DNA of 64,000 bases from Ginglymostoma cirratum. Taxonomy: Eukaryota. Where the stretch lies: contig JAHRHZ010000028.1 of assembly GCA_024137785.1 (NCBI GenBank), positions 36,408,215-36,472,214 on the forward strand, read 5' to 3'. Each line of letters opens with the position of its first letter. Position 1 is the stretch's first letter. The position numbers were made by a program, and so were the translations under genes. The notes beneath the pieces are model-generated. The model did no database searches. It saw only the letters and a list, made by a program, of their open reading frames with translations, and was not told the DNA's origin. Of this stretch, positions 20,611-20,703 are shown piece after piece.

Positions 20611-20703
20611 TAACAAGGTGTAGAGCTGGATAAACACAGCAGGCCAAGCAGCATCAGAGGAGCAGGAAAGCTGACGTTTCGGGTCTGGACCCTTCATCAG
20701 AAA
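20611..20703 (-). mobile_element. short PLE-derived element, family A, with intact hammerhead core
   Basis: minus strand reads CTGATGA-A-GGGT-CCAG-ACCC-GAAA-CGTC. Confidence 0.8.

Follow-up and report, generated by a model that had tools for sequence, protein, structure and literature searches.

Eight short copies of a sequence bearing a minimal hammerhead ribozyme core are dispersed over a 64,000-nt stretch of the Ginglymostoma cirratum genome (hereafter, the window), which raises the question of whether they are independent mobile units or pieces of a larger element, and of what set their ends. The initial annotation of positions 20611-20703 had proposed either a non-autonomous mini-retroelement or the product of extreme 5' truncation.

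Eight related copies in the window

All eight annotated copies were located, dispersed on both strands and 88-94% identical to 20611-20703. They are listed here with the core of the 20611 copy, using element coordinates in which 0 is the predicted cleavage nucleotide C17.

20611..20703, minus strand: solo short arm, element positions -30 to +62; target duplication, none found
20673..20700, minus strand: complete minimal hammerhead core of the 20611 copy (CUGAUGA at 20700-20694, an extra A, helix II of 20692-20689 with 20684-20681, GAAA, palindromic ACGU)
after 20673, minus strand: predicted hammerhead cut of the 20611 copy
8004..8122, minus strand: short arm, about -19 to +99; no CUGANGA box, GAAA decayed
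8296..8411, minus strand: arm with an end near +99; 5' side lost in an assembly gap
25227..25318, plus strand: short arm of the AAGU subfamily, -23 to +68; 7-bp flanking repeat (weak); no CUGANGA box
25914..26093, both strands: head-to-head inverted insertion with arms at 25914-26005 (minus, -27 to +63) and 26012-26093 (plus, +20 to +99); 15-bp target duplication; GAAA decayed
35508..35573, minus strand: tail-only arm, 0 to +66; 12-bp target duplication; no ribozyme core
42457..42576, minus strand: short arm, -22 to +97; 13-bp target duplication; no CUGANGA box
59411..59497, plus strand: short arm, -25 to +60; 11-bp target duplication; no CUGANGA box

The minus-strand core annotated for the 20611 copy, CUGAUGA-A-GGGU(CCAG)ACCC-GAAA-C-GUC at 20700-20673, was confirmed as written, and this copy alone among the eight has both core boxes. 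As a feature of the unit at large, the core therefore stands for 20611 but not for the other window copies, which lack a full core, that at 35506 having none and that at 8296 meeting a gap of N. As for the reported unit size of 65-180 bp, the 25915 copy is an inverted pair of arms and not a single 180-bp unit. Direct repeats of 7-15 bp had been described at five copies, and both the count (5/8) and the lengths were recovered (7 bp at 25231, 15 bp at 25915, 12 bp at 35506, 13 bp at 42458, and 11 bp at 59411); 17 of 289 random controls also reach 7 bp and none reaches 9 bp, so the repeat at 25231 is weak. A covariance-model check of the hammerhead against Rfam gave 10 matches in the window at E<=10 with no hammerhead model among them, an uninformative result for so small a motif.

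On the plus strand, positions 26804-63360 of the window contain exons coding for a guanylate-kinase end, two WW and several PDZ segments, whose motifs fit a MAGI-type gene. The placement of plus-strand copies in a MAGI pre-mRNA is supported by these exons, but the point is moot, as the two copies whose motif reads on the host-gene strand (25231 and 59411) are both missing the CUGANGA box and thus add no intact ribozyme to the host pre-mRNA. Elsewhere in the window, positions 33969-34078 are an almost perfect inverted repeat whose arms measure about 40 bp and which has a weak microRNA hairpin score in Rfam.

The parent element and its ribozyme

Among the 30 closest genomic copies of the unit, translations and all-against-all matches revealed a long upstream flank of the Penelope-like element (PLE) type in seven, and this shared upstream sequence encodes a CxxC linker and a GIY-YIG domain. 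A genome search with the upstream 3' part returned 18,903 first-look candidates, and all 30 long loci among the matches listed end in the same hammerhead and tail. Two loci (L061 and L062) are laid out as an inverted 5'-truncated arm, then ORF, pLTR, and tail; where there are partial tandems, no break separates the tail from the ORF N-terminus, and the monomer measures about 3.5 kb. Translations of the single ORF contain the reverse transcriptase (RT) motifs DKG, LPKIHK, A, B, and YIDD, a C-X4-C-X2-C linker between the RT and the endonuclease, and, in many copies, a C-terminal GIY-YIG motif. The corresponding Pfam matches, RVT_1 (E 8.3e-6) and GIY-YIG (PF01541, E 7.7e-4), both score below their curated cut-offs; a PDB sequence search with the RT-endonuclease region gave no match, nor did two protein pieces of the element in Pfam. 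The tail is present at one end only. The short units are thus the pLTR plus tail, that is, hammerhead and tail, of an endonuclease-bearing Penelope-like retrotransposon of about 3.5 kb. The suggested genome-wide search for a full-length parent PLE was successful in this respect, and the target duplications together with a parent encoding RT and GIY-YIG agree with insertion as short units by PLE machinery.

To count insertions, we used the window and 31 blocks of 50 kb, which were hand-picked rather than random and 11 of which had no readable sequence, for a total of 1.03 Mb. This sample yielded 151 tail-bearing arms; eight were dropped at less than 78% identity, leaving 143 family A arms, and a further 31 next to gaps were set aside, leaving 112. 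The 98 events comprise 59 solo arms, 38 inverted insertions, and one same-strand neighbour pair, and 73 of the 98 are short. By rough extrapolation, there are about 4 x 10^5 insertions genome-wide, some three quarters of them (about 3 x 10^5) short. At L017:533-1634 (the same as L065 and L181), both inverted arms share one internal deletion, by which the front of the ORF is joined to the 3' UTR, and an element with that deletion had therefore been copied.

Such discrete ends and very high numbers would also be expected if the short units were an independent non-autonomous mini-element, SINE-like or retrozyme-like, transcribed from short masters and copied in trans, and PLE-derived retrozymes do exist according to the accessible part of bioRxiv 10.64898/2026.07.22.740005. 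However, a comparison of 75 short with 33 long arms found the commonest haplotypes in both classes, and no variant private to the short copies after correction (best p = 0.004 among 117 positions). No junction-adjacent upstream flank is common to the 38 short solo copies, no head-to-tail arrays occur among the 98 events, and the TATA-like box described below lies outside the short unit and is left behind. Given the same haplotypes, the absence of a shared junction-adjacent flank, and the lack of head-to-tail arrays, an independent mini-element is unlikely, and we give little credence to this part of the initial annotation. Four weak flank matches among short copies were due to inverted arms or to other repeats. 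At invariant tail sites, short copies diverge by 3.6% and long ones by 2.4%.

Because the unit is the pLTR and tail of a PLE, its motif is a known kind of ribozyme, the minimal type I hammerhead of PLE termini; the annotation of the motif as such was matched by its layout and by the parent element, and catalysis is predicted. In 23 distinct rows from several families, 88.7% of the cells are paired, compared with at most 51.7% in slid controls. Helix II, which includes G10.1-C11.1 and is accompanied by an extra nucleotide following A9, is paired in 92.4% of cells and shows U-A to U-G in 7 of the 23 rows; helix III is minimal, a palindromic ACGU in the core; and helix I is paired in 82.6% of cells. 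The poor pairing noted earlier for helix I applies to the 20611 subfamily (3/4 pairs), but not to the other main subfamily, AAGU, or to family B (4/4 pairs in each). The covariation score was equalled by 12 of 500 shuffles, and relatedness alone can yield such a score. Hammerhead core sites vary just by CpG decay and scattered changes, while the changes common to many copies between -27 and 0 concern N7 (which across families is A, T, or G), three sites in loop II, and one in helix II at which pairing is kept. The CUGANGA and GAAA boxes, whose lack of conservation over flanking positions had been named, together with a lack of cleavage even as a dimer, as counting against ribozyme function, are therefore kept, and subfamily-level changes avoid core sites. 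Selection on the ribozyme is visible in this pattern for the parent lineage; in short copies, the ribozyme would be a passenger. As the core is intact in 43 of the 143 family A arms in 1.03 Mb, and in one of eight copies in the window, counts of dispersed minimal hammerheads overstate the number of active ribozymes.

Family B, the second PLE family, differs in its longer loop II and has a helix I of 4 perfect bp as well as TATAAA as its box; 79 of its arms occur in 1.03 Mb, and its long copies follow a GIY-YIG end. The window contains five stretches of it:

4701-4753, 16790-16873, 18256-18336, 26589-26687, and 56539-57074: family B
56539..57074, minus strand: long copy that matches the whole family B reference, from endonuclease end to tail
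16790..16873, plus strand: short copy with its start at the hammerhead front

Three hits in the fetched blocks belong to a third hammerhead family, which has a long helix II and TATAAATA upstream; in L004, an unrelated GIY-YIG frame is followed by a similar end.

Ends of the copies and a predicted run-off route

The 5' ends of the 112 family A arms, defined by BLAST and uncertain by 2-3 nt, lie at -25 to -36 in 43 cases, at -2 to +4 in seven, and beyond -39 in 32. Per nucleotide, arms stop at a rate of 0.077 at -29 to -33, 0.004-0.005 around the cleavage site, and at most 0.003 beyond -39. In 1.03 Mb, the 5' ends thus pile up at a wall 4 nt before the core, away from the cleavage site. Since so few ends fall at the latter, the ribozyme cut does not set the ends of short copies, and ribozyme cleavage was rejected as their source. 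With regard to the alternative of extreme 5' truncation with a smooth continuum of lengths, a long tail of ordinary truncations is present, but the sharp wall does not fit it. In family B, which has a different upstream sequence without a C run, 52 arms extend as far as -29, and 43 of these end between there and -37. In the genome as a whole, the segment -30 to -3 has 39,077 exact matches, of which 16,780 (43%) extend exactly to -37, some of the loss being due to mutation. About half of the copies reaching -30 continue past the wall, so a second route is needed for long copies. In the partial tandems L183, L189, and L192, the first piece begins at -30 to -32 and the second at -30 to -34, which we read as two stops at the wall with a template jump between them. 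Contigs from four sequencing runs, which cannot show RNA starts, have loose ends at -31, +64 to +67, and +98, and contain no recurring splice-type joint.

The 3' ends cluster near +66 and +99, with solo arms split 28 to 31. Two-arm inversions combine one end at 48-70 with one at 87-116 in 33 of 33 cases, a count that leaves out five inverted events of three or four arms each. Within a target duplication of 12-19 bp, inverted insertions contain both 3' classes, one per arm; duplications of at least 10 bp flank 20 of the 26 gap-free inverted insertions, mostly at 14-16 bp, and 10 of the 38 solo short copies. We infer that the two nicks of one event each use one start site. Both 3' classes end in TATCTC (+61 to +66 and +92 to +97, 31 nt apart; for example, window 26055-26093), and the repeated TATCTC is a candidate priming signal. 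Assembly gaps often fall at the centre of inverted pairs, both in the window (8413-8812) and in the fetched blocks, and N adjoins 10 of the 27 short inverted events, which means that the assembly under-represents fold-back insertions.

The A at the wall sits inside CCATTTC in family A and TCAGTTC in family B, and both fit the initiator consensus. A TATA-like hexamer is found 31 nt upstream of this A in 71 of 91 long-copy rows, and TATAAA 29 nt upstream in five rows of family B; the 91 spacing rows were chosen for a TATA-like hexamer, are related and partly duplicated, and represent two or three families. A spacing of 29-31 nt is usual between a TATA box and the transcription start. Where the parental C before the wall A is absent (n=3,328), the letter in its place is G in 1,417 copies, A in 1,323, and T in 588, with 27% G expected; in family B, the first 100 of 1,002 listed matches have 48 G, 41 A, and 11 T. 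At L1 5' ends, an extra G is known as a sign that the cap has been copied. Here, most of the 17 inspected junctions with G allow that letter to be read as target or partner-arm sequence too, and A is equally frequent, partly from fold-back junctions; the G excess is thus only suggestive of a cap trace. Copies without A at -31 have T there in 6,667 of 8,394 cases, and 15 of 20 inspected copies of this kind read A and then at least four T, in agreement with slippage at an end.

A start site is not the only reading of such a boundary. In Drosophila Penelope, the promoter is TATA-less and internal (PMC2377424) and, according to the accessible part of PMC4209133, an intron ends at the front of helix I, so the boundary here need not be a start site. 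The wall could accordingly be a processed RNA end, produced by ribozyme cleavage or by a splice junction at the helix I front, and acceptor-like AG motifs do occur, in family A at -52 and in family B both at the wall and before it. Yet ribozyme cleavage would be at position 0, which accounts for only 7 of 112 ends, in family A the wall lacks an AG and 2 of 112 ends lie at -39 to -60, and the short copies have no common upstream exon, all of which makes a processed end highly improbable. At element positions -60 to -51 (for example, L031:2572-2582), the TATA-like box overlaps a splice-acceptor-like TTTATTTCAG, and a similar place in family B contains CTGAC, which is branch-like, together with a pyrimidine run and CAG; no spliced joint was seen at the acceptor-like motif by the TATA-like box.

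Another explanation is that all copies are 5'-truncated and primed at the element 3' end, the wall being an RT stall at the C run or at the folded ribozyme, or a cut of the new DNA by the endonuclease at ATT. That roughly half of the copies pass the wall would suit this explanation, as would the C run directly upstream of it in family A and the preference of an anole PLE endonuclease for ATT in its own pLTR (PMC11167929). It does not account for the missing pile-up at the C-rich 3' UTR or at the more AT-rich TATTTATTT 30 nt upstream, and family B, with AGTT and no C run, has an even stronger wall; moreover, a stall predicts neither the TATA spacing in two families nor the G excess. We therefore regard this explanation as doubtful, and C-run stalling and ATT cutting in particular as disfavoured by the absence of pile-up at comparable sites and by the family B wall.

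The reading that we prefer is that short copies are probably, for the most part, run-off cDNAs extended from two internal RT starts to the predicted 5' end of uncut RNA, a reading drawn from the positions of ends and motifs in the genome. Pol II would start at A(-31), in the initiator-like motif 31 nt after the TATA-like box, and the element RNA would begin 4 nt before the ribozyme core. The endonuclease would nick both target strands about 15 bp apart, and of the two nicks one would prime at +66, one at +99; when primed on the tail's 5' copy, synthesis would run off the capped end some 97 or 130 nt later. This cDNA could then be joined to the target, be joined to the other arm, or jump to another template. 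Long copies would arise by priming on a 3' or circular copy, or by strand transfer, and the short copies, having no TATA-like box, are predicted dead ends.

Run-off products of this kind would be strong-stop-like products of uncut RNA. Whether PLEs have a strong-stop step, with a dimeric RT that uses two fixed sites close to the 5' end of capped, uncleaved RNA for priming on both nicked target strands, followed by transfer to the 3' repeat (giving long, more-than-unit copies) or by direct integration of the 100-130 nt run-off, seems to us evenly balanced. If they do, the hundreds of thousands of solo minimal hammerheads of this genome would be the fossil record of a strong-stop intermediate, and their ends would map the start site, the cap, and both priming sites to the nucleotide. 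The predictions at this resolution are an RNA start at -31, priming at +66 and +99 with one site per strand, a stagger of about 15 bp, and little use of ribozyme-cut RNA. The rebuilding of the pLTR, the one-sided tail of inverted arms, and the role of the hammerhead are open questions in PMC2377424, PMC8557442, and PMC11167929, as far as their accessible parts go.

Comparison with known systems

The ribozyme type and the element class are already known. Literature searches on hammerheads and Penelope in sharks returned nothing on this element, one on a PLE strong-stop returned only unrelated work, and neither these nor one on non-autonomous pLTR copies yielded a description of the wall; subscription papers, repeat databases (Repbase, Dfam), and supplements lay outside these searches and may already list the family.

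Metazoan PLE pLTRs carry minimal type I hammerheads (min-HHR) with low activity even as dimers, and thousands of single dispersed motifs have been attributed to truncated PLEs, according to the accessible part of PMC4209133. The motif reported here resembles those described there in its core boxes, the extra nucleotide after position 9, G10.1-C11.1, the palindromic 15.2-16.2, the short helix I, and the dispersal of single motifs. It differs in a 4-bp helix II, compared with 7-8 bp in the schistosome min-HHR families, and in the U-C mismatch in helix I of the 20611 subfamily; the same part of that account, supplements aside, reports neither a fixed 5' wall nor any shark (PMC4209133).

By its layout rather than by a tree, the parent would be an endonuclease-bearing (EN+) PLE with a linker of the Neptune/Nematis kind. 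[quoted passage not shown] Unlike in the Neptune PLEs described there, about three quarters of the insertions here contain nothing beyond the hammerhead front. The one-sided tail is thus already known in PLEs (PMC3846280, PMC8557442), as is a TATA plus Inr in a rotifer pLTR (PMC3846280), within the available text of these sources.

RT in the anole Poseidon element PAc starts at two internal sites that delimit the tail just within the ORF, and its template is mainly uncut RNA (PMC11167929). The present element would be alike in its two internal start sites, in the cutting and extension of both target strands, and in the uncut template; PAc belongs to another clade, its start sites showed no difference between strands in bulk, and its 5' ends are unmapped in that study (PMC11167929). 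The strict one-of-each pairing per insertion and the run-off wall come from the present genome, not from PAc.

Non-LTR retrozymes are likewise short, non-coding, PLE-related, hammerhead-bearing, and dispersed as monomers, and they form head-to-tail arrays with a ribozyme per unit, according to the accessible part of bioRxiv 10.64898/2026.07.22.740005. The copies described here, unlike retrozymes, are solo or head-to-head and are exact sub-pieces of a coding element. In LTR retroelements, minus-strand strong-stop DNA results from priming near the RNA 5' end and run-off across a segment that is repeated at both ends. Our model differs from this process in that synthesis would be primed by nicked target DNA and not by tRNA, and the product would be integrated directly; the two are related by analogy only.
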